Source of the DNA: a bacterium
GTDB lineage: Bacteria; Bacteroidota; Ignavibacteria; Kapaibacteriales; Kapaibacteriaceae
Reading direction: 5' to 3'
Length of the DNA: 64,000 bases
Assembly: GCA_034440235.1 (NCBI GenBank)
Contig: JAWXBR010000009.1
Location: 88,440-152,439 of the forward strand
Below are positions 5,314 through 64,000 of this stretch, piece after piece. The notes beneath the pieces are model-generated. The model did not search any database. It had not been told where the DNA came from and worked only from the letters and a program-made list of their open reading frames with translations. The translations under genes and the position numbers were made by a program. Numbering within the stretch: the first letter of the stretch is position 1; each line of letters starts with the position of its first letter.

Positions 5314-8274
5314 ATGCTTCGTGTGCGCCAAATCATTGTCGCCATTGCGATCTTCATCATTGCGTCAATCCTTAAGGCGCAAGGACCAGAGCTCGTCGAC
5401 ATTAGGCTCACTCAGCCCCCTCCCAATCAGTTGCGCATTGCTGACTTGTGGAAGGTCGAACTGAATAACCGCTCTGGACGCCCAGTTCGGGTGTATTTGC
5501 ATGGCACTGCAGAAGAGACATCAATCCCCGACGGGATTATTGCCGATGCACGTACGAAGATTATTACTGTACCGCCAGGACGTTCGGTTGTCACTGGTAA
5601 TGACGTCCAGCCGATTACAGTAGATCAGTCGAATAACAAGTACCGCGACGCTCTTTTACGAACCGGCTCTGTGCCTTCTGGTGCGTACACGATTTGTTGC
5701 GAGGTAATTAGCGAAGAGACCGACCAAGTTATTGGACGCGATTGCAAGTTCGTGACGGTAGAGCGCATGACGATTCCGATTCTGATTGCGCCGCCTGACG
5801 AAAGTGTTGTCATGGATAAATTCCCGACGTTCTCGTGGCTAAGCGGGTCTCCACCAGCAAGCGGATTTCGTCCGACCTACCGCTTGAAAATCGTCGAGGT
5901 GTTTAACAGCCAGTCGCCATACAGCGCTATGGCTGCGAATCCAGCGTGGTTCATTCGCGAAAACATTCCCAACAACGTGTTCCTGTATCCCGTTTCAAGC
6001 AGATCGTTTGAAGTGAAACGCAAGTATGCATGGATGATAACGGCGTTTAATGCTACAGACGGACGTGTTCCCATGGGCGAGAGCGAGATCTGGTGGTTTA
6101 CCTACAACCCCGAAACCGATAGTCAAGACGATACGACCGATACGACCGATGGCGATCAGGCTGATAAACGAGGCACGGGTGATACAACTGCGGGCGGAGG
6201 CGTAAAGACAAGCAAATCGAGCCTAACGGCAGACATGCCTTGTGGCGGAGAGAACTGGGACTTCGAACTTGGTACGCTTGGTTGCTGGACCGTTGATGGT
6301 GAGGCGTTTGTTGATGATCCTGTTCTCGATGATCACCCCGTGCTTGGCCAACTTGGTCATCATGCCAAATACTGGGTAACATCTCTTGGACCGACAAATG
6401 GCGATGGTGCTGTAGGTGCAATGCTGTCAGAAGAATTTCAGATCAAGACCAGCACTATTGGATTTTTGTGTGGTGGCATGCTGTCTGGTGATGCAGGTGT
6501 TGAACTGCTTGTCGAAAAACTTGCAAAAGACACATTCAAGCTTCCATCGCGACGTATTGCTTTGTCGACGAAAGAATTCTATGTCGCTCATACAACCAAC
6601 GCCGATCTAGGTGCGGCATCTAAAGCAAAAAGTGGTGGCACATCAGATAGACTCGATCCGGTTGAGTGGGACGTCACTAAATTTTTGAATCGCGTTGCCT
6701 TTATCATAGTGCGCGATTCAACGAAGGTCGGGCACGTTAACGTCGATTACTTCCGATTCTACGATCGTGAGAAAGACGACTCGGTTAAACTGCCGGTGCT
6801 TGTTATGTCAGCCGGAGAAAACCATTCGCTCGCAGCAACTCCACAAGAGAAGCCAAAGAAAAATATTCGCGACATGCTTTCCAGTGATGTAGGCATTTAC
6901 AGAGGAGGCGGAGCACAGTTCACCGACCTTAATGTGGTGAACGATGTGTCGACAAACACGAAGCGATTCACTTCTGCTGTTGTAGACGAGAACCTGAAGC
7001 TCAATCCGTCGTTCAAAGCCTCTATAAACGCCGAGGACTTTCCCAAGTTCACAGAAGCGAACATTCAGAGTAACAAAAAAGATGGTCCCGAACTGTATGA
7101 AATGAATGCTTCCGAAGCAGCAAAGTATAGCAAGGCCGGACTTGGTCTTTCTGCGCTCAACCCTAAAAACATCGTGTGGGGATGGGGAGATAATCTTAGG
7201 CGCGCCGTTGGTAAAGATTATGGTGGCGTAGTGCCCGAGCCGATGAAACTAGAAAAGGTTAAAGAAGTGAAGGCACTTGCAGCGGGCATGGACCACTCCT
7301 TCGCGGTCACGAAGGCGGGTGCTATTCTCGGCTGGGGCTTCAATGACTACTGGCAGCTCGGTACCGATGATCGTGTACAGAAAAACGACCCTGTCGATCT
7401 AAAAGTCGCAAACATCATTCAAGTCGCAACCGGGTCACGCCACGCACTCGCACTCAACGACAAGGGTCAAGTATATGTGTGGGGGTATAACCGCACCTGG
7501 GAATGCGGAACGTGGTTGAACGTGATATTCGACAACACGACGGGACAGATAACGGCAAACCTGCCAATGACAAAGCCTACGCTGCATTATGCGTTGAATG
7601 GCATTGCAGCAGTTGCTGCGGGACATTCGCATTCGGTAGCACTGTCGTTTACTGGTGCAGTGTTCTGTTGGGGAGCTAACAATTACGGACAGTGTGGTGT
7701 AGACCCCGACGACTTATTTGCAATTGGATGGCCAACACCTGTAGTAGTGCCAGGAGCTGTTGAAGCGAACCTATCCTTCCTTAAACGACAGGGCTTTACC
7801 TCCGTGTCGGCTGGAGACTACCATACGATGGCCCTTGATATCGACGGCCGAGTGTGGGCATGGGGAGGTAATGCAAGCGGACAGCTTGGCGATGGCACGA
7901 ATAAAGACCGCCCAGCACCTGGATTGGTAAAGGGGCTGCCCCGTGTCAAGGCTATTGCCGCTGGCAGTACATTCTCACTAGCGCTCGATTCAGCAGGCAA
8001 TCTGTGGGCATGGGGCAATAATGCTCTTGGACAATTGGGCGACGGTACGCGAGTTGGGCGAATAGAACCTGTGAAGGTGTCTCGTCTAGACGCAGTAGCT
8101 GGTGTTGTTGCGGGTGGAGCACATGGTATGGCCGTTCGTGCAGACGGTGGACTTTGGACATGGGGAACGAATGAATACGGACAGCTCGGAGAGGGTCCGA
8201 TAACAAATCTTACTCCTGTGCCCCTTGATCCGCCCCTTGGCCCATTTCGTGTCGAAAAACTTGCATCGCCTTAG
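5314..8274 (+). CDS. Secreted RCC1-repeat (beta-propeller) protein
   Basis: The ATG at 5314 gives MLRVRQIIVAIAIFIIASILKAQG, a signal peptide. The track start at 5281 is GTG. The C-terminal half holds about 7 RCC1-like repeats (WGWG.N..GQLG...V.AG..HS.AL...G.V..WG.N..GQLG.G). Confidence 0.7.
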   Translation: MLRVRQIIVAIAIFIIASILKAQGPELVDIRLTQPPPNQLRIADLWKVELNNRSGRPVRVYLHGTAEETSIPDGIIADARTKIITVPPGRSVVTGNDVQPITVDQSNNKYRDALLRTGSVPSGAYTICCEVISEETDQVIGRDCKFVTVERMTIPILIAPPDESVVMDKFPTFSWLSGSPPASGFRPTYRLKIVEVFNSQSPYSAMAANPAWFIRENIPNNVFLYPVSSRSFEVKRKYAWMITAFNATDGRVPMGESEIWWFTYNPETDSQDDTTDTTDGDQADKRGTGDTTAGGGVKTSKSSLTADMPCGGENWDFELGTLGCWTVDGEAFVDDPVLDDHPVLGQLGHHAKYWVTSLGPTNGDGAVGAMLSEEFQIKTSTIGFLCGGMLSGDAGVELLVEKLAKDTFKLPSRRIALSTKEFYVAHTTNADLGAASKAKSGGTSDRLDPVEWDVTKFLNRVAFIIVRDSTKVGHVNVDYFRFYDREKDDSVKLPVLVMSAGENHSLAATPQEKPKKNIRDMLSSDVGIYRGGGAQFTDLNVVNDVSTNTKRFTSAVVDENLKLNPSFKASINAEDFPKFTEANIQSNKKDGPELYEMNASEAAKYSKAGLGLSALNPKNIVWGWGDNLRRAVGKDYGGVVPEPMKLEKVKEVKALAAGMDHSFAVTKAGAILGWGFNDYWQLGTDDRVQKNDPVDLKVANIIQVATGSRHALALNDKGQVYVWGYNRTWECGTWLNVIFDNTTGQITANLPMTKPTLHYALNGIAAVAAGHSHSVALSFTGAVFCWGANNYGQCGVDPDDLFAIGWPTPVVVPGAVEANLSFLKRQGFTSVSAGDYHTMALDIDGRVWAWGGNASGQLGDGTNKDRPAPGLVKGLPRVKAIAAGSTFSLALDSAGNLWAWGNNALGQLGDGTRVGRIEPVKVSRLDAVAGVVAGGAHGMAVRADGGLWTWGTNEYGQLGEGPITNLTPVPLDPPLGPFRVEKLASP

Positions 8275-8275
8275 T

Positions 8276-8353
8276 GTTGAAATCGGAAAGTCTCTTTAAC
8301 AGTTGAAATCACAGAGTCGCCTGAACGGTTGAAATCGCAAAGTCGCCTTCACT
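8276..8353. repeat. Three tandem 26-bp direct repeats (GTTGAAATCNNNAAGTCNCC...) in the promoter region of the 8367 gene
   Basis: Units at 8276-8301, 8302-8327 and 8328-8353 each begin GTTGAAATC and share an AGTC core. They lie between the RCC1 gene stop and the next gene start. Confidence 0.6.
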
Positions 8354-8366
8354 TTCGCAAAAGCAA

Positions 8367-10343
8367 ATGCGCCTTGTTCTGTTGTGCATCTCAGTAAGCG
8401 TAACACTATGTCTCTCGCATAGTATTGCGCAGCAGTCTCCTACGCCACAAACTCCATCAACAAGTTCACCGTGGTTTGTGTTTGGTTCGCAGAATGGTGA
8501 TGCCCCAGTAATGCTCATGGGCAGCTATCGCATGATCGGACAGACAGCGAATCGCCAAGGCACCTTCCAGGAAAAGCCGCCCGATTTATGGCGGATGGAA
8601 ATTAATCCTACCATTTCGTTGTACGGAATTCCGCTTACCGCAAATCTTTTGCTGTCGTCAGAGCAAGACGGACTACGTCAGGACATCAACGCATTTTCAA
8701 TTACGCTCGACCCAGAAGCTGTAAAGCGTATTGTTTCGGCACGCGCATATCGCGCTCTGAATGAATTCGCACGATCGGAGGGCGGCGAACTACTCGACAA
8801 GTACGACGATGTGCAGGATTCGCTTGCGAAGTACAACCCCGATCAGCTCAAACAACTCGAACAGTACAAGCAAGTAGAAAAACTTCGTGATGTTGCAAAC
8901 GGCGACCTAACTGGTTACACCGACCTCATGCAACAGATGGGTTTTATGTCGGATGTCGAAGCAGTGATGGCTGCACTTCCAACGATTGGGGTTGGTGCGC
9001 TCTTCCCAACCTTTACACCCCTCACTGTGAATGGTGTCCGTTTGGACGGCGGCTCTGCAGAATGGAATCCGGGCTTTTTTTACGTGCACGTAGCGGGTGG
9101 TAAAACACAACGTCCGTTGCTCAGACTCGACACTGCACGTGTAGACTCGGGTGTGTTTGCGAACTTCGATAACTCGGCATTCGGACGAATGATGTATGCC
9201 GGACGTATCGGCATCGGACGGCGTGATGGTGCACACTTCATACTTAATGGGGTGTATACAATCGACGACAGGCAAAGCATAACATTCTCTGACACAAACT
9301 CGTCGCTTACTCCGCAGAAAAACATGCTCATGGGTCTCGATTTTAAGACAGAGCTCATACCAGGCATGTGGACGTTGGAAGGTGAGGGTGCTGTAACACT
9401 TACGGTAGGCGACCAGAACGCACCAAAGTTTAGTACAAAGGCAGTACCCGATATTCTGCTTGGGCTTGTCGACTCATCGGCATCGTCGTATTTCGATTGG
9501 GCGGTGACTGGTTCAACCCAACTCGACATTCGATCTACGGGCACACGTTTTCGCGCGTCAACACGAAGGATTGGTCCGGGTTACCGAGCGCTTGGCGTTC
9601 CCAACCTGCGCACCGACGTCTTTCGTTATGATGCACGCATCGATCAGTCGTTCTGGCAAAGGCAGTTCAGTGTCGGACTTTTCTATCGTCGCGACACCGA
9701 CAACCTTCTTCCGTGGAAACGCAGTACTACAACGATTACGAGTCTTGGTGCTACACTTGGTCTTAACATTCGCAAGTATCCGTACCTGCGACTTTCGTAT
9801 GCACCATACGCTCAGATTAACGACGACCCAGAGCCCAACCTCCAGATCGATAACAACATCACGGTTCTTACGGCTGCTTCGGGCTACAGCTATCGTATTG
9901 GCGATCTTTCGGCAAACACAACGCTTAATGCGGGAAGTCAGTCTAGCAAAACAATCAATGGAATTGCTGATTACGCAGTTCTTACGCTCAATGGTAATCA
10001 GAGCATCAGTTTTACATTTCCGCTTACGTTGTCGGCAGGTATGGGCTATATATCACAAAAGTCTACAGGTTCGCCAGACAACACCATTATTACCGTAGAT
10101 GGGTCTGTGAACTACGGCATTTTCGAGTTCATGAGTGTGAGTGGCGGCCTTACTCTCGCATTCGACGACACGTTTGGTACGCGCACCGGCTACTTCTTCG
10201 GCTTGGGTGCAACACTTGGCGAGTTCGCCAACGTCGACATTCGTGCAGAGCGCAATCTCTTTAACGAGCGTCTAAACCCGCCGGTTTACGGTGGCACCTA
10301 CCAAGAGACAATCTTCAGGGCCTCGATATCGAGGTCTTGGTAG
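8367..10343 (+). CDS. Hypothetical secreted / outer-membrane beta-rich protein
   Basis: Signal peptide MRLVLLCISVSVTLCLSHSIAQQ. Beta-rich composition with a C-terminal aromatic residue (..SRSW). Same strand, immediately downstream of the RCC1 protein. Confidence 0.45.
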   Translation: MRLVLLCISVSVTLCLSHSIAQQSPTPQTPSTSSPWFVFGSQNGDAPVMLMGSYRMIGQTANRQGTFQEKPPDLWRMEINPTISLYGIPLTANLLLSSEQDGLRQDINAFSITLDPEAVKRIVSARAYRALNEFARSEGGELLDKYDDVQDSLAKYNPDQLKQLEQYKQVEKLRDVANGDLTGYTDLMQQMGFMSDVEAVMAALPTIGVGALFPTFTPLTVNGVRLDGGSAEWNPGFFYVHVAGGKTQRPLLRLDTARVDSGVFANFDNSAFGRMMYAGRIGIGRRDGAHFILNGVYTIDDRQSITFSDTNSSLTPQKNMLMGLDFKTELIPGMWTLEGEGAVTLTVGDQNAPKFSTKAVPDILLGLVDSSASSYFDWAVTGSTQLDIRSTGTRFRASTRRIGPGYRALGVPNLRTDVFRYDARIDQSFWQRQFSVGLFYRRDTDNLLPWKRSTTTITSLGATLGLNIRKYPYLRLSYAPYAQINDDPEPNLQIDNNITVLTAASGYSYRIGDLSANTTLNAGSQSSKTINGIADYAVLTLNGNQSISFTFPLTLSAGMGYISQKSTGSPDNTIITVDGSVNYGIFEFMSVSGGLTLAFDDTFGTRTGYFFGLGATLGEFANVDIRAERNLFNERLNPPVYGGTYQETIFRASISRSW

Positions 10344-56970: not shown

Positions 56971-57047
56971 GCGCCCGTAGCTCAACTGGATAGAGCAACA
57001 GCCTTCTAAGCTGTAGGTCGCTGGTTCGAGTCCAGCCGGGCGTACCA
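56971..57047 (+). tRNA. tRNA-Arg (anticodon TCT)
   Basis: Hand-folded cloverleaf. Acceptor GCGCCCG/CGGGCGU. D-arm GCUC-AACUGGAUA-GAGC. Anticodon stem ACAGC/GCUGU with loop CUUCUAA. T-arm GCUGG-UUCGAGU-CCAGC. Encoded CCA. Confidence 0.85.
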
Positions 57048-58616: not shown

Positions 58617-59000
58617 TTGCCTTACTGTACGTATCCTTTCCGACATCACTTAACTCGATACCCCTTAAGGTGCGTTCCCGAGCCTTTAATAATTCACATC
58701 ATGTCGCTTGGATGCTACCTCGTCATTGCCTGCGCCATGCCAGGAAACGCTTTCTCCTTGAGCTTTTACGCTTCCCTGACACACGCACACAGCGCATGGG
58801 GATCCACGTCGATCTCTCGGGCAATACTGACCTTTGTTCGCGTGGGATTCTCTTCAACCAGTCGAACTGCTTCTCGCTTAAAGTCCCGTTCTACGGGGTG
58901 GCTCCTCTTCCTTCATGGTCGCCATCGGTTGGGATTACGTTTGCGGGATCCGTCACGCTTCAACCTTCTGTATTTTGTGAACTTACCTAAGGGACATACC

Positions 59001-60074
59001 ATGGCAAAGCGATCCGTGACTGAGGAACAGAAGGCAGCTGCGGAAGCACAAATCGACAAGAATCAAAAGGTCATTGATTATGATACGCGGGAGTATCCTG
59101 TGGAAGTCATCATCCAGAAGTATCTTAAGGACATTGAGAACGACAACAACGACTTCTTCATTCCCGATTACCAGCGTGAACATTCGTGGTCTGACGACCG
59201 ACAGTCGCGATTCATAGAATCCGTCTTGATGGGGTTGCCGATCCCGCTGCTATTTTTCGCCGACGTAGCAGGGCAGGAAGGTCGCGCGGAGATTGTCGAT
59301 GGCTCTCAAAGGGTTAGGACTCTGGCACGTTTTGTAAGCGGTGAACTGGAATTGACAGGGTTAGAGAGGCTAGACAAACTTAACGGGTTACGGTATCACG
59401 ATTTGTCCTTGACCCGGCAGCGTCGATTCGGCCGTCATACGCTTCGAATGATAGAATTGCGCGAGGGCGTCGACGAAGATGCCAGAAGGGACATCTTCAG
59501 TCGTATCAATACCGGGAGTCTAGTGCTAAATGATATGGAAGTGCGTTGGGGTACCGAGGATGGCCCATTTCTTCACTTCATTCGTGATTGCTCAAGGAAC
59601 CCACTATTCACGAATGCCGCTCCCTTGAGTCCAATGGCTGTAAAGCGTCGAGAACCACAGGAGTTCGTACTTCGCTTTTTCGCATATCTAAACAATTATA
59701 AAAAATTTGACCGGAGCGTGGTTGGATTCCTTAACGATTACTTGGATAGGGTGTCGAAACAATTTTCCGATGCTCAGAAGGTCGAGTTTGAAGAAGAGTG
59801 GTTGCAGATGCTGACCTTCGTGTCAGACCGTTTTCCATCCGGATTTGTGAAGGCAGACGGGCATGTCCGAACTCCACGAATTCGGTTTGAGGCTATATCG
59901 GTTGGAGTAGCACTTGCACTTCGAGAAAACCCCGAAACCATTCCTAATAATCTTGATTGGTTGAATTCAGAGACCTTCCTGTCACTGATGAGATCGGACG
60001 CAAGCAACTCACGGCCAAAGGTCATCAAGAGGATTGAATACGTTCGCGACAATGTGTTGGGGACGTACAAATGA
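59001..60074 (+). CDS. DUF262 (ParB/sulfiredoxin-like, GmrSD N-terminal-type) domain protein
   Basis: Start at the internal ATG (MAKRSV). DUF262 hallmarks: ...FFIPDYQREHSW... and ...EIVDGSQRVRTL. The stop overlaps the next ATG (ATGA). Confidence 0.7.
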   Translation: MAKRSVTEEQKAAAEAQIDKNQKVIDYDTREYPVEVIIQKYLKDIENDNNDFFIPDYQREHSWSDDRQSRFIESVLMGLPIPLLFFADVAGQEGRAEIVDGSQRVRTLARFVSGELELTGLERLDKLNGLRYHDLSLTRQRRFGRHTLRMIELREGVDEDARRDIFSRINTGSLVLNDMEVRWGTEDGPFLHFIRDCSRNPLFTNAAPLSPMAVKRREPQEFVLRFFAYLNNYKKFDRSVVGFLNDYLDRVSKQFSDAQKVEFEEEWLQMLTFVSDRFPSGFVKADGHVRTPRIRFEAISVGVALALRENPETIPNNLDWLNSETFLSLMRSDASNSRPKVIKRIEYVRDNVLGTYK

Positions 60075-60763
60075 ACGATGTACGTCAAGACTATGAAGAA
60101 CGCGTACAGGAAATACACGACTACCTTGCATTGATATACGAGTTGGAAATTGGGACTATCGACTTCATCATTCCTGCCAATGCCCAAAAGGCCTTTGACG
60201 ATAAACGTCGACGGAATCTACTGCGAACCTTCAAGGCAAGTACCTACCTGATGTTGTATAACCTGATGGAGTCTGCGGTTATCAGTGCCATTTGTGCGAT
60301 TTACGACGAAATGGAAACCCGAGGAGTCGATTTTGATGCTTGTAGATCAGAAATTCGAAAAATTGTACTTCAGAATTTGAAGAATCACCAACCTCAGACG
60401 ATAGTCGGTTCGCTGAACAAGGTCGCGTTGGACATCATAACCAAAACATATCAACGTTCCAAGATCGCATCGGGTAACGTCGACGCACAAAAAATCAGGG
60501 AAATCGCAACCGAGTATGGCATAAAACATCCTCGTGCTGATGGCTCCATGCTTGTGGCGGTCAAGAGGCAGAGACAAGACCTTGCTCATGGTGTCAAGTC
60601 CTTCGCGGACGTTGGTAGAGACACCACGGTCACAGAACTTGTAGAATTGACGAGACAGGTAACCGCCTACCTGACGCTGTTGATCGACAATGTGGCGGAG
60701 TACATCAACGACCAACAATATTTGTCGGTTAATGTCGCTAGTGCTTCCTTAACCGCAGTGTGA
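60071..60763 (+). CDS. HEPN-like putative RNase (recalled MAE_28990/MAE_18760-type partner of DUF262 proteins)
   Basis: 230-aa, alpha-helical-looking. Candidate HEPN Rx4H motif in ...KRQRQDLAHG... . Translationally coupled to the DUF262 gene. Confidence 0.5.
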   Translation: MNDVRQDYEERVQEIHDYLALIYELEIGTIDFIIPANAQKAFDDKRRRNLLRTFKASTYLMLYNLMESAVISAICAIYDEMETRGVDFDACRSEIRKIVLQNLKNHQPQTIVGSLNKVALDIITKTYQRSKIASGNVDAQKIREIATEYGIKHPRADGSMLVAVKRQRQDLAHGVKSFADVGRDTTVTELVELTRQVTAYLTLLIDNVAEYINDQQYLSVNVASASLTAV

Positions 60764-60789: not shown

Positions 60790-61083
60790 TCAGGCTTTCG
60801 GAACGGAGCATTCCCAGATAACGACGGTTCTCCAGCCAAGATCAGCAAGGGCTCTCAGCGCCCGAACGTCCCGAGCTTGATTTGCGTCGAATTTCTTTTG
60901 CCAGAATTCAGTACGAGATTTGGGAGTGATTGTCATGGCACAACCATGACGATGCCAGAAACAACCGTGGACGAAGATCACTGGCTTGTCCTTAGGCATG
61001 ACGATGTCCGGTGTACCCGGAACGTTTTTGTAATGAAGGTGGAATCTGAAACCAGCTTCGTGCGACGCGGTTCGCAATCTCAA
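60790..61083 (-). CDS. vsr: Very-short-patch repair endonuclease (Vsr), N-terminally short / TTG start
   Basis: ...TPELRLR...G.RF...PG.PDIV...VIFVHGCFWHRHGC...RTEFWQ.K...N..RD......GW.V..IWEC. There is no upstream in-frame ATG, and an in-frame stop lies just upstream. About 20 aa shorter than typical Vsr. Confidence 0.75.
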   Translation of the reverse strand: MRLRTASHEAGFRFHLHYKNVPGTPDIVMPKDKPVIFVHGCFWHRHGCAMTITPKSRTEFWQKKFDANQARDVRALRALADLGWRTVVIWECSVPKA

Positions 61084-61142
61084 TTCAGGTGTTGAATCTT
61101 AACTGCCGACACTGGCCATAATTCGGGACCGTGTTTGATGAT

Positions 61143-63146
61143 TTACTGATTCCACGATCCTGCTATTTGTTCAAGTAGGTCATCCAGTTTCTTCAACTTG
61201 GCATCTTCCTCAAGATAGTTCGAATACGATCGCAGCGCACCATTGATCAGCGCATCGTAGTGTACGATACGACTGCCGGGTGCAATTGATCGCATTGAAT
61301 CTTTGAGCCTTTCGGGGTTACTAAGCTCCTCATCAATGGGCTGACCGAGCACGAAGATCACCTCGATGTTCGGATTCGGAATATCATGATTGCCGACAAG
61401 AATTGTCCTTAGAGTATCGACATACCCACGACCCTGTACCTCAAGTTCGGTGAGTTTCATTTTACGGCCAGCCTTTTTCAGTTCAACGATGAGATGTTTA
61501 TCCGCGTAGGTCTTATACCGTATGTCCACCCTTCCAAGGCTCTGTTTTTTTGTAAGGCCATCAATTGTTATGCCCTTCTCTTTTAAACTCTTCTCGACTT
61601 GTTCGCTACCACTTGCCCGTTCCCACGAGGGATCCAGTAGCCATAGGTGATCGAACAAATGGTCACGAAGCGCACTTTCCTTTTGGTCCTCGTTAACTAA
61701 AGATTGAAGAGCACGAATGACTTCGATTCGCGATTTGACAATATCCCTATACAACGCTGCTTCGTAACTATCTCTGCTGTTGAACAAACGCAACAAACCT
61801 TGTGTGTCATCCAACATCGCGACGAAATCATCAACAGAACCTCGCAATTTCATACGTTCGAATGCAAGCACTCCGTATTTAAGTAGATCCTTTCTGTCTT
61901 CGTCCTTATCGAAATCCACGGAACCAAGTTTGCCCACCATTTTCAACGCGCTGTCCTGATGGCCTTCTGGAAGTTGCTCAAGCCATAATTTGAAGGTTGG
62001 ATTTAAAGCCTTCGTCTCAAGAACAGCATGTTTGCTCCTCCATTGGTTCCATTCAGCATCGACTTTGTTCAGCATTTCCTTCAGCAACTGGATAAGCTTG
62101 GTGTATCTCGGATCGTCCTCTTGAATACGTTGCCTATCACTTGTAGCGATGTCTTCATCATCATCCGTGTCCATGAAGTCAGCTTCGATCTGACCTGTGA
62201 GGTACTTTGTGAATATGCGGCCATCGTTCAGCTTATCAAGAATATTCTCGTGGAATAATCTGCCCCGAGAGAAGACAACGATACCATTGAGATTACCTGA
62301 GTCATCGTTATCCAGTTCCTTCGGTTTCTTTGCCGTACCAAGCCATCCGCGCAGTTCCCAGGTCTCATCCCAGTCGGCATTTTTGTTCTTGAGCTTTCCT
62401 CGTTCCTTGACGTTGGGAGTTGACGCGTCTTCAATAACGGTATCCCCCAAAATCCATAAGAACTGGGCCGTACGAAGGTCCTCGCGATCCTCTACTGTAA
62501 TTGGAATATCGTTAACGTAGACCATGAAATCATGCACATGACCCAGAATCGAAAATCGCCTTGCCAGACGCTTGCGTAAGGCAACGATTCCCCTTCCTAG
62601 TCGTTCGCGCTTAATATGCGTCAATGTGATTCGGGTACCACTATCAATATCGACAGCATGATCGGGTAGTGACACGGGATGGTATTTTTCGTTAGCCTTT
62701 GCGCTTTTCCTGATACCATCAATAGTCATTCTCAGGCCATGTGAAACATCTTGCTTCCTAGTCTGAACTTCAATCTCCTCTGCGATCGAAAAGAGTGACA
62801 GCTTACCCAGCCCTTTCCGGCCCATTACAGGCCTACCCTTAGCAGTGACCCTGCCTGTTGCCGTATCAAGGTCCCGCCGTCGATAGCCAACTCGAAGGTA
62901 CTTACCGTTCATATCCATTATCGACATTCCGATACCGTTATCGGTGATTACGATCCTCTTGCCTTCCGCGCGGATCTCATCCACCAAAATTCTAACCTCG
63001 GTGGCATCAGCATCCCAAGCGTTTGCCACTGCTTCGGTGATCACTGCGGCTACGTTGCTATAGAGATTGATTCCTAAATGATCTAGCACGGTGAGGTCGA
63101 CCGACATCTCGTACAGGCTGTGATCAGCGTCTATGATGTTGTCCAT
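61143..63146 (-). CDS. GHKL-family ATPase (MutL/MORC/Hsp90-like Bergerat fold) fused to a C-terminal PD-(D/E)XK-like putative nuclease domain
   Basis: N-box ITEAVANAWDA, G1 ITDNGIGM, G2 GRKGLGKLS. C-terminal ...LGRVDIRYKTYADKHLIVELKKAG fits the D...(E)xK restriction-endonuclease-like pattern. Its start overlaps the dcm stop by about 23 nt. Confidence 0.65.
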   Translation of the reverse strand: MDNIIDADHSLYEMSVDLTVLDHLGINLYSNVAAVITEAVANAWDADATEVRILVDEIRAEGKRIVITDNGIGMSIMDMNGKYLRVGYRRRDLDTATGRVTAKGRPVMGRKGLGKLSLFSIAEEIEVQTRKQDVSHGLRMTIDGIRKSAKANEKYHPVSLPDHAVDIDSGTRITLTHIKRERLGRGIVALRKRLARRFSILGHVHDFMVYVNDIPITVEDREDLRTAQFLWILGDTVIEDASTPNVKERGKLKNKNADWDETWELRGWLGTAKKPKELDNDDSGNLNGIVVFSRGRLFHENILDKLNDGRIFTKYLTGQIEADFMDTDDDEDIATSDRQRIQEDDPRYTKLIQLLKEMLNKVDAEWNQWRSKHAVLETKALNPTFKLWLEQLPEGHQDSALKMVGKLGSVDFDKDEDRKDLLKYGVLAFERMKLRGSVDDFVAMLDDTQGLLRLFNSRDSYEAALYRDIVKSRIEVIRALQSLVNEDQKESALRDHLFDHLWLLDPSWERASGSEQVEKSLKEKGITIDGLTKKQSLGRVDIRYKTYADKHLIVELKKAGRKMKLTELEVQGRGYVDTLRTILVGNHDIPNPNIEVIFVLGQPIDEELSNPERLKDSMRSIAPGSRIVHYDALINGALRSYSNYLEEDAKLKKLDDLLEQIAGSWNQ

Positions 63147-64000
63147 TTGCTAGCTGACCTAAATGATGTACGATGCTTTTACCGATGACCTCACCAAGTT
63201 TCACTGGTACTGCATTACCGATCATCCTTCCGATCGTCGTCTTGTTCAATCTTTGCGAGGGTGCGACAAATTTATAATGTCTTGGGAAGCTCTGTAGTAT
63301 TGCGCCTTCCCTGAAGGATAAGGCCCGATCCTGTTCTGGATGACCGAAGCGGCCATTACCGAACCCGAAAAACTGCGTAGTGATCGTTGGTGACGGTTGG
63401 TCCCAACTCATGCGCCCATAGACACTGGAATACGTTTTGCCACTAGGTTTTCTATGACAATCCGAGCGAAGTTCCTCAGGCCAATCTCTCCATGTACCTC
63501 CCGGCTTGGACGCCTTCAAGCGGGTCATGTTGATGGAACTGAGTGCACACGTTTGATGGAGATTGTCCTTCGGATCAATGTCTCCTGCTTCGAGCTTCGG
63601 TAACGACCTGATAGCTTCGGAAACAGTTCGAACTTTCAGAGTACGCGGAGGAGGCAGAAGTTCGACAGTACCATGCCTAGATGCCAAAAGTACAAGTCTC
63701 CGGCGCGTTTGAGGAATCCCATATTCAGCGCAGTTGACTTCATGGATCGTGGGTTCCTTGAACCCACATCCTGAAAGTGTTTTTATGAATTTCAGAAAGA
63801 CTTCCTGCTCCTTCAGGCGAGGGACGTTTTCCATGGTGACGATGTCAGGAAGCGTATCAACAATCAACTGGCCGAAGACATCAAGGAGATTCCAACGATC
63901 GTCCCTGCTATCGCTCCTCCCTTGCATGTAAGTCGAAAATGGCTGGCACGGAGCACAACCGGCTAAGACACGATACTTAGCTTTCCCCCAAGCATTTAGA
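63124..64000 (-). CDS. dcm: DNA (cytosine-5)-methyltransferase, 5'-partial (continues beyond window end)
   Basis: Reverse-strand translation reads ...KYRVLAGCAPCQPFSTYMQGRSDSRDDRWNLL...TMENVPRL... (motif IV PCQ, motif VI ENV). The frame stays open to position 64000. Confidence 0.85.
   Translation of the reverse strand, partial: LNAWGKAKYRVLAGCAPCQPFSTYMQGRSDSRDDRWNLLDVFGQLIVDTLPDIVTMENVPRLKEQEVFLKFIKTLSGCGFKEPTIHEVNCAEYGIPQTRRRLVLLASRHGTVELLPPPRTLKVRTVSEAIRSLPKLEAGDIDPKDNLHQTCALSSINMTRLKASKPGGTWRDWPEELRSDCHRKPSGKTYSSVYGRMSWDQPSPTITTQFFGFGNGRFGHPEQDRALSFREGAILQSFPRHYKFVAPSQRLNKTTIGRMIGNAVPVKLGEVIGKSIVHHLGQLANGQHHRR

Follow-up and report, generated by a model that had tools for sequence, protein, structure and literature searches.

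A gene for an ATPase fused to a nuclease, lying between a cytosine methyltransferase gene and a vsr gene, raises the question whether it belongs to a new defence system or to one already catalogued. Such an arrangement occupies the far end of the window, by which we mean the whole stretch of 64,000 nucleotides analysed here. The first-pass annotation had proposed an uncharacterised candidate system. We find instead that it is a new member of a catalogued restriction family, and the three genes most probably make up an HgiDII/BbrUII-type restriction-modification (R-M) module, carried by a defence island integrated at tRNA-Arg.

Gene layout and family membership

The three minus-strand genes are real and their coordinates agree with those annotated: a C5-methyltransferase ORF, a 667-residue ORF and a Vsr ORF listed as 60790-61083 (Table 1). 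The dcm stop codon (63126-63124) overlaps the ATG of the 667-residue gene (63146) by 23 nt, as had been noted. The three-gene operon stands as far as ORFs, motifs and overlap are concerned; its two outer genes are not as listed, since dcm runs past the window end and vsr is broken. The dcm frame remains unbroken as far as base 63999, and motif IV (GCAPCQPFS) lies within it. The whole gene, which encodes 370 residues with motifs I, IV, VI, VIII, IX and X, can be read at 5860-6972 of a public contig of identical sequence (L001).

Table 1. Features of the module, in window coordinates.
Feature	Coordinates	Strand	Evidence
dcm (M subunit), 3' part (291 codons and stop) of C5-cytosine DNA methyltransferase gene	63124..64000	-	Pfam DNA_methylase, 1e-29
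667-residue R subunit gene, BbrUII/HgiDII family restriction enzyme	61143..63146	-	NCBIfam NF050001.1; PADLOC REase_II
GHKL (Bergerat-fold) ATPase domain, residues ~14-200	62547..63107	-	Pfam HATPase_c_3, residues 32-155, 1.1e-18
Middle (transducer / S5-like) domain, residues ~205-325	62172..62534	-	AlphaFold2 model, Foldseek
Long alpha-helical linker, residues ~346-481	61704..62111	-	Model secondary structure
PD-(D/E)XK nuclease domain, residues ~486-630	61257..61691	-	Motifs I E518, II D541, III E555-x-K557, IV Q571xxxY575
vsr, very-short-patch repair endonuclease gene broken by in-frame TAA	60790..61155	-	Listed ORF just 60790-61083
Premature TAA, about codon 19 of vsr counting from GTG at 61155	61099..61101	-	Sequence

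The 667-residue protein matches NF050001.1, the curated NCBIfam equivalog named "BbrUII/HgiDII family restriction enzyme", with 779.1 bits (cutoff 550), its residues 12-661 covering profile positions 1-659 of 659; it also matches REase_II among the PADLOC models of Type II restriction enzymes (1.6e-105). Because the NF050001 match is full-length and above cutoff and a Type II model matches as well, this is not a new candidate system. The label "uncharacterised" fails on the literature too: HgiDII and BbrUII are treated there as characterised R-M systems, the latter among three Type II systems characterised in B. breve UCC2003; a 2008 paper (PMC2441816) already reported the GHKL domain in R.HgiDII; and VcSduA, a GHKL-DUF4263 protein, underwent a mutagenesis test in 2025. 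More than 4,200 homologues were found, and several carry the name BbrUII/HgiDII family restriction enzyme. The closest database relative of the R protein (63% identity) and that of Dcm (72%) are each encoded on an 89,022-bp contig labelled as a Bradyrhizobiaceae MAG. The locus is an ordinary annotation case, and the NCBI pipeline would call the protein a BbrUII/HgiDII family restriction enzyme.

The neighbours of the module are genes for a HEPN protein, a DUF262 protein and an integrase, followed past the window end by an HTH protein gene and small ORFs. L001 was searched for a second copy of the tRNA-Arg 3' end that would mark the island boundary, and none was found.

Upon closer examination, vsr proved to be damaged. 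Upstream of the listed ORF its frame reads VESVNHQTRSRIMASVGS*DSTPEL, and the stretch 5' of the TAA corresponds in alignment to the N-terminal segment conserved in Vsr homologues (L003, L006), which have a residue where the window has the stop codon. The TAA splits this conserved segment from the ORF, and with this gene broken the module cannot count as fully intact. The ORF past the TAA matches Pfam Vsr (1.3e-16) and, from profile position 22, TIGR00632 (109.5 bits, cutoff 97.85). Given the stop codon at the position of the homologues' residue, vsr is probably a pseudogene or encodes a product with a truncated N-terminus. The TAA is identical in three assemblies (the window and contigs L001 and L002, one from Logan and one from JGI). 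The ancestral start was likely the GTG at 61155, which overlaps the stop of the 667-residue gene; the 59-nt gap previously annotated between the two genes is an artefact of the break.

Domains of the 667-residue protein

The Bergerat-fold N-terminus recognised in the first-pass annotation is confirmed. Its motifs EAVANAWDA, DNGIGM and GRKGLGKLS are intact, and E38, N42, D45, D69xGxG73 and G109-R-K-G-x-G-K115 do not vary among 63 relatives that are 33-56% identical. Profile matches of this domain in PDB are HtpG, TRAP1 and MutL, and the AlphaFold2 model aligns with Hsp90/TRAP1 N-terminal and middle domains, MORC2 and MutL LN40 (Foldseek E 1e-11 to 1e-9, 356-480 columns). A conserved DIATSDRQR loop (T335, R338, Q339), in which R338 is invariant, comes after the middle domain. 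Judged by its sequence, the ATPase looks competent. Its invariant motifs argue that nucleotide binding matters, and their strict conservation agrees poorly with a simple Type IIP mechanism in which ATP plays no part. No account of ATP function in the BbrUII/HgiDII family was found in the searchable literature; the role of ATP is a directly testable question.

A MutL or HtpG paralogue, named beforehand as the finding that would overturn the restriction proposal, is ruled out: the NCBIfam models for those families give 16-31 bits where 180-937 are required. MutL models reach 16-28 bits (cutoffs 180-937) and the best HSP90-family model 30.7 bits (cutoff 455), in both cases over the ATP-binding region only. 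Membership of the PADLOC Hma and Mza systems was likewise rejected, the sole match being a marginal one to MzaB (7.8e-5) on the ATP-binding region.

The C-terminus contains the stretch GRVDIRY...HLIVELKK from which a PD-(D/E)XK nuclease had been proposed, and structure comparison finds this fold, with NucS and the Shedu nuclease as closest relatives. The catalytic residues are invariant or almost so among relatives of 33-56% identity, and the helical linker in front of the domain is the least conserved segment of the protein. C-termini of the family match Pfam SduA_C, PDDEXK_4 or NucS_C. The SduA_C matches, found in 27 of 42 C-termini, are weak (best 5.3e-6), and the window protein has none; PADLOC SduA matches one relative only (2e-4). 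In the suggested HMM check HATPase_c_3 was found as expected, and the last 188-288 residues of the window protein, searched alone, gave no meaningful Pfam match. A profile of the C-terminal domain retrieved NucS alone from PDB sequences, at E=1. The C-terminal fold, unassigned in 2008, is here assigned to PD-(D/E)XK.

Methylase linkage and the target site

The genomic surroundings of the family were surveyed in 51 homologous loci, each with 1.5 kb or more of flanking sequence on either side, obtained by an alignment-seeded scan of metagenome contigs; a single-protein scan of genome contigs gave at least six loci. Linkage to methyltransferases, on which the original proposal depended, turned out to be universal in this set: a DNA methylase gene (dcm or a DISARM methylase) lies within about 3.5 kb in 51/51 loci. 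The gene is dcm, at a distance of at most 1.5 kb, in 38 of them, and 30 of these 38 have dcm immediately upstream on the same strand. Together with the NF050001 match, this linkage upholds the view of the protein as effector (R) of a methylase-linked restriction system. The order dcm-R-vsr on one strand recurs in many loci. The vsr gene is present in 17/51 and missing nearby in 22 of the 38 dcm-linked loci, so the module can dispense with it.

The window Dcm was compared with 45 partner Dcm proteins. Of these, 38 share 50-69% identity with it over the target-recognition region (residues 205-312) and just 42-53% over the N-terminal catalytic core (residues 20-200). That the recognition region is better conserved than the catalytic core suggests one specificity common to much of the BbrUII/HgiDII family. 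A translationally coupled dcm with a conserved recognition region is what marks a matched R-M pair, and it is the ancestral and dominant context of the family.

The target of the window system is probably GTCGAC, as for the prototype M.HgiDII, an m5C methyltransferase of that site. We infer this from the curated family model and the conservation of the recognition region; the best 120 matches among Dcm homologues bear generic names only, with no named M.HgiDII or M.BbrUII. The window shows no avoidance of GTCGAC (46 sites observed, 41.6 expected). The best PADLOC matches of the window dcm are DrmMII (2.9e-70) and MTase_II (3.5e-67). As to the other prototype, the BbrUII methyltransferase prevented in vitro cleavage by its associated restriction enzyme. 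One paper presents M.BbrUII as an N6-adenine methyltransferase, which is contradicted by another calling it a characterised 5mC methyltransferase; the latter paper, which we follow, also aligns it with M.HgiDII, with the signature m5C-methyltransferase motifs marked.

In 12 of the 51 loci the R gene is located within class 1 DISARM, whose genes are present in related loci L004-L026. Here it is flanked by drmMI, which encodes an adenine methylase, and drmA, as in Roseovarius salincola (L005), and the nearest 6 kb contain no dcm; in some cases it overlaps drmMI by 4 nt and stops 4-13 nt short of drmA. These R proteins are 50-58% identical to that of the window. DISARM-linked and dcm-linked members share 74-78% identity in every domain and interleave in the tree. 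Such placement is not readily explained by an enzyme strictly matched to a site and its m5C mark. The candidate nuclease of class 1 DISARM itself, DrmC, has been reported dispensable, and no mention of a GHKL, MORC or Shedu component was found in the DISARM and YprA literature searched. The R relatives in class 1 DISARM without a cytosine methylase may bear on how DISARM degrades DNA.

Mechanism, alternatives and known systems

In the R-M module that we propose, the Dcm-type enzyme would methylate cytosine C5 in the target site, probably GTCGAC, and so mark host DNA, and the PD-(D/E)XK domain of the 667-residue protein would cut the unmethylated target by means of E518, D541, E555, K557 and Q571. 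By analogy with MutL, MORC and Hsp90, ATP most likely makes the GHKL ATPase and the Hsp90/MORC-like middle domain form a dimer, which would clamp both nuclease domains on DNA or position them there. The usual task of Vsr is the repair of T:G mismatches arising from deamination of 5-methylcytosine, a function presumably lost here through the nonsense codon.

The conserved ATPase and the DISARM-linked relatives invite a different interpretation, namely that the 667-residue protein is an ATP-gated nuclease of the paraMORC3 or Shedu type 1D, interchangeable between Dcm and DISARM DrmMI, and that self is distinguished from non-self by something other than a fixed methylase-matched site. A GHKL domain, an Hsp90-like middle domain and a Shedu/NucS-like nuclease are the architecture described for those types, the ATPase motifs are invariant, and the tight packing of some DISARM loci and the interleaving of both kinds of members also speak for it. 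We nevertheless judge this reading of the window protein improbable. NCBI curators class the family as equivalog to two named restriction enzymes, and its dominant and ancestral partner is a coupled dcm with a conserved recognition region; besides, the window protein has no SduA_C match, and Shedu is a single-gene system, whereas the family is always linked to a methylase. A wider version of the idea, that the HgiDII/BbrUII "Type II" enzymes are really ATP-gated Shedu/paraMORC3-type nucleases serving as interchangeable effectors, mostly paired with Dcm and in one sub-clade placed in DISARM, is speculative, and we regard it as rather unlikely. If it were true, the sub-clade between drmMI and drmA could bring nuclease activity to class 1 DISARM, and the window protein would be a tractable two-gene version of such an effector.

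The state of vsr might indicate that the whole module is a decaying remnant with silent or inactive R and M. The fixation of the TAA in three assemblies points that way, as do promoter and terminator scans of the module, whose counts were no higher than chance. Decay is nonetheless very improbable, for the R gene is an unbroken ORF of 667 codons that has kept all invariant catalytic residues, dcm is complete with its six hallmark motifs, and so many dcm-linked relatives lack vsr that its loss need not affect the rest. It is hardly credible, finally, that the GHKL protein is a MutL-like accessory that helps Vsr in very-short-patch repair instead of being a restriction enzyme. Its gene does sit between dcm and vsr, and E. 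coli MutL reportedly interacts functionally with Vsr via the Vsr N-terminus; yet the MutL models fall far short of their cutoffs, the protein has a conserved nuclease active site of its own, most homologous loci have a methylase and no vsr, and in the window it is vsr that is broken and the GHKL gene that is intact. The R-M module of HgiDII/BbrUII type accordingly remains our preferred interpretation.

Among known systems, class 1 DISARM (drmMI, drmA, drmB, drmC) resembles the present case in housing R relatives between drmMI and drmA and in that DrmMII is the top PADLOC match of the window dcm; it differs in that no drmA, drmB, drmC or drmMI lies beside the module, whether inside the window or on L001 over the following 6 kb. 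The window locus shares with classical Dcm-Vsr pairs and vsr-bearing Type II m5C systems the combination of a C5-methyltransferase gene and vsr in one operon, but here vsr has a premature stop. Unlike Type IIP systems, it encodes as R a 667-residue ATPase-nuclease fusion and not a small enzyme. In 2008 Iyer, Abhiman and Aravind predicted paraMORC3, in which a GHKL domain is joined to a restriction-endonuclease fold; both this architecture and Shedu type 1D (VcSduA) share with the fusion the GHKL domain, a middle domain of Hsp90/MORC type and, at the C-terminus, a PD-(D/E)XK domain with E-D-ExK-Q. SduA_C, too, matches 27 of 42 C-termini of the family, though weakly and not that of the window protein; Shedu and VcSduA are single genes, in contrast to the methylase linkage in all 51 loci. 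With R.HgiDII and R.BbrUII the protein shares a full-length NF050001 match above the curated cutoff and an adjoining C5-methyltransferase gene, and with R.HgiDII also a GHKL N-terminus followed by a distinct C-terminal domain; partner Dcm proteins across the family conserve their recognition region. The window locus also has a vsr, now broken, and the nearest database relative of its R protein is only 63% identical. Strictly conserved GHKL motifs and a Shedu/NucS-like nuclease within one named family tie Type II R-M, paraMORC3 and Shedu together.

The minus-strand operon and its island

Coordinates of the operon and of the flanking genes are collected in the table. The overlap of 23 nt between the dcm stop and the ATG of the 667-aa gene (R), claimed in the first-pass annotation, agrees with the ORF coordinates, and all motifs quoted for the protein were found in its translation. 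Since the MTase frame contains motif IV (GCAPCQPFS) and stays open as far as the window's final complete codon, dcm is cut by the window edge and not by mutation. On L001, a public contig identical to the window and reaching past its end, the complete dcm encodes 370 aa with motifs I, IV, VI, VIII, IX and X. An HTH_3/XRE-family gene (141 aa, L001 5119-5544), on the window's minus strand about 550-980 bases past the window end, precedes dcm in the same orientation with 316 nt between them; its product could control the R-M module in the manner of a C protein.

Features of the operon and its island (window positions)
Feature	Position	Strand	Evidence or remark
tRNA-Arg(TCT)	56971-57047	plus	
Tyrosine integrase, 462 aa	57228-58616	plus	180 nt after tRNA-Arg(TCT)
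DUF262/GmrSD_N + HEPN_MAE_28990 gene pair	58617-60763	plus	Pfam/PADLOC
97-aa Vsr ORF as listed	60790-61083	minus	Pfam Vsr 1.3e-16
In-frame TAA in conserved N-terminal segment of vsr	61101-61099	minus	homologues have a residue there
667-aa ORF (R gene)	61143-63146	minus	Pfam HATPase_c_3 1.1e-18, residues 32-155
C5-MTase ORF (dcm)	stop end 63124, open to window end	minus	ORF listing; Pfam DNA_methylase 1e-29

The listed vsr ORF is incomplete. Upstream of it the frame reads VESVNHQTRSRIMASVGS*DSTPEL in the window translation, a stretch that lines up with the conserved N-terminal segment of Vsr in two homologues, and Vsr profiles of NCBIfam and Pfam match the window ORF only from position 22-26 on. 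Because the TAA falls within this aligned segment and is identical in three independent assemblies (window, Logan and JGI), vsr (60790-61155) is, judged from sequence, most likely a pseudogene, while dcm and R are intact. The 59-nt gap formerly reported between R and vsr is thus an artefact, as the likely ancestral GTG start at about 61155 overlaps the end of the upstream R gene.

A tyrosine integrase following tRNA-Arg(TCT) places the R-M module and the other defence genes on a tRNA-integrated island; a search of the 6 kb past the window end on L001 for a second copy of the tRNA 3´ end came up empty. The GmrSD_N/DUF262 and HEPN_MAE_28990 genes overlap by 4 nt, are convergent with vsr and look like a second, two-gene defence module. 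The former protein matches the PADLOC models NsnA (4.3e-58) and PD-T4-2_A (4e-30); the latter matches none. The true start of the listed 485-aa ORF of this pair is probably later, near MAKRSV.

Identity and domains of the 667-aa protein

Against NF050001.1, the NCBIfam equivalog model of BbrUII/HgiDII family restriction enzymes, the protein scores 779 bits (curated cutoff 550) over profile positions 1-659 of 659, and PADLOC models of Type II REases match it at 1.6e-105 and 4.7e-77. All seven relatives tested, 34-60% identical to the window protein, also pass the NF050001 cutoff. Homologues number more than 4,200 in a 90%-clustered database, where several of them already bear the name BbrUII/HgiDII family restriction enzyme, and 604 of the 50%-identity representatives reach E<=1e-30.

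Conservation was judged in an alignment of 63 relatives (33-56% identity). E38, N42, D45, D69xGxG73 and G109-R-K-G-x-G-K115 of the GHKL domain are invariant or nearly so, as are R338 (invariant), T335 and Q339 (nearly) in the middle region, which belong to a DIATSDRQR loop disordered in the AlphaFold2 model. In this model (mean pLDDT 76.9) the GHKL domain is followed by a beta-rich middle domain, and helices over residues 346-481 form a long linker to the C-terminal domain, which is alpha/beta; over the first ~356-480 columns Foldseek retrieves TRAP1/Hsp90 NTD-middle, MORC2 and MutL LN40 (E 1e-11 to 1e-9). Conserved C-terminal residues are E490, W502, W508, E518, R539, D541, E555-L-K557 and Q571xxxY575, and their E-D-ExK-QxxxY pattern is the signature of RecB/NucS/Shedu-type PD-(D/E)XK nucleases. 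The window protein's own C-terminal sequence has no Pfam match; among 42 family C-termini, SduA_C matches 27 (best 5.3e-6), PDDEXK_4 16 and NucS_C 11. Signature and family matches together bear out the PD-(D/E)XK call (D541, E555, K557), and the earlier structural reading, GHKL ATPase plus nuclease, was accurate.

Gene neighbourhoods of the R family

We gathered 86 related loci (6 from genomes, 80 from metagenomes) and searched their ORFs for Dcm, Vsr, DrmMI and DrmA, using HMMs refined by iteration. Contexts were counted where both flanks extend 1.5 kb or more (51 loci). A dcm lies within 1.5 kb of the R homologue in 38/51 loci, in 30 of these 38 immediately upstream on the same strand and usually with a few-base overlap; vsr lies within 1.5 kb in 17/51. 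Twelve of the 51 have a class 1 DISARM context without dcm, and one has dcm at 3.4 kb. Methylase linkage thus extends to all 51 usable loci, and the absence of linkage, which the first-pass annotation had named as refuting its proposal, was not seen.

In 38/45 loci the partner Dcm shares 50-69% identity with the window's Dcm over the recognition region (residues 205-312), more than over the N-terminal catalytic core (residues 20-200; 42-53%). This pattern for m5C MTases suggests one specificity common to most of the family. It fits GTCGAC, the site of the experimentally characterised m5C methyltransferase M.HgiDII, whose homologue is M.BbrUII of Bifidobacterium breve UCC2003 (PMC5867850). GTCGAC counts in the window revealed no depletion. 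In seven loci (L067, L068, L070, L071, L075, L082, L085) the dcm next to R is unrelated, at about 20% identity, suggesting a specificity switch.

The R homologue is flanked by genes for DrmMI (1,340-1,400 aa) and DrmA (1,350 aa), both with PADLOC E=0, in genomes of Rhodobacterales and on a number of metagenome contigs (L004, L005, L007-L009, L014-L018, L021, L024, L026; e.g. L005 1919-12012); spacings in some of these loci are -3 nt and +4 to +13 nt. L010 (14-10319) and L011 show the order drmA-drmB-drmC-R-vsr-GmrSD_N. These embedded homologues are 50-58% identical to the window protein, have no dcm within 6 kb, and are nested in the tree in one sub-clade with the window protein and with L003 and L013, which are linked to dcm and vsr. 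They share 74-78% identity with L013 in every domain, and L013 is as close to L003 as to them. The DISARM and YprA literature searched does not mention such a component. In L007, an AspBHI-like m5C-dependent Type IV enzyme (RE_AspBHI_N + Mrr_cat, 7951-9171) lies between the R homologue and drmA, which agrees with no cytosine methylation in that host.

Proposed mechanism and known relatives

We consider it highly probable that the window module is an HgiDII/BbrUII-type R-M module. Dcm would mark the host site, probably GTCGAC, and the 667-aa enzyme would cut unmarked DNA via its PD-(D/E)XK domain. By analogy with MutL, MORC and Hsp90, and given the strict motif conservation, the GHKL and middle domains probably form an ATP-driven dimerisation clamp. 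An intact vsr would keep C-to-T mutation of the methylated site in check; here the gene is broken.

The DISARM-embedded forms are not explained by a Type II enzyme matched strictly to m5C. Their context without dcm keeps alive an ATP-gated Shedu/paraMORC-like effector, tied to no single site and usable with different methylation modules, which for the window protein we nevertheless regard as unlikely. A decaying remnant is more doubtful still. Least credible is a MutL-like helper for Vsr: MutL and HtpG models, whose cutoffs are 180-937 bits, score the protein at just 16-31 and match it over the ATP-binding region only.

The first-pass description of the system as uncharacterised does not hold: both its family and its architecture are known. 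BbrUII is among three characterised Type II systems of B. breve UCC2003, and in a cell-free system its MTase blocked cutting by the associated REase (bioRxiv 10.1101/2023.09.16.557782); the literature searched says nothing about the role of ATP in the HgiDII/BbrUII family. For R.HgiDII, a GHKL N-terminus and a separate C-terminal domain had been described in 2008 (PMC2441816); the PD-(D/E)XK assignment supplies the fold of that C-terminal domain, left open at the time. GHKL-DUF4263 proteins are presently classed as Shedu type 1D, and one of them, VcSduA, loses defence on mutation of E27 (ATPase) or K557 (nuclease) (PMC12137116). In 2008 Iyer, Abhiman and Aravind had defined the paraMORC families, found in R-M operons alongside Dcm and Vsr; one of these families, paraMORC3, ends in a RecB-like domain of the restriction-endonuclease fold (PMC2292703).
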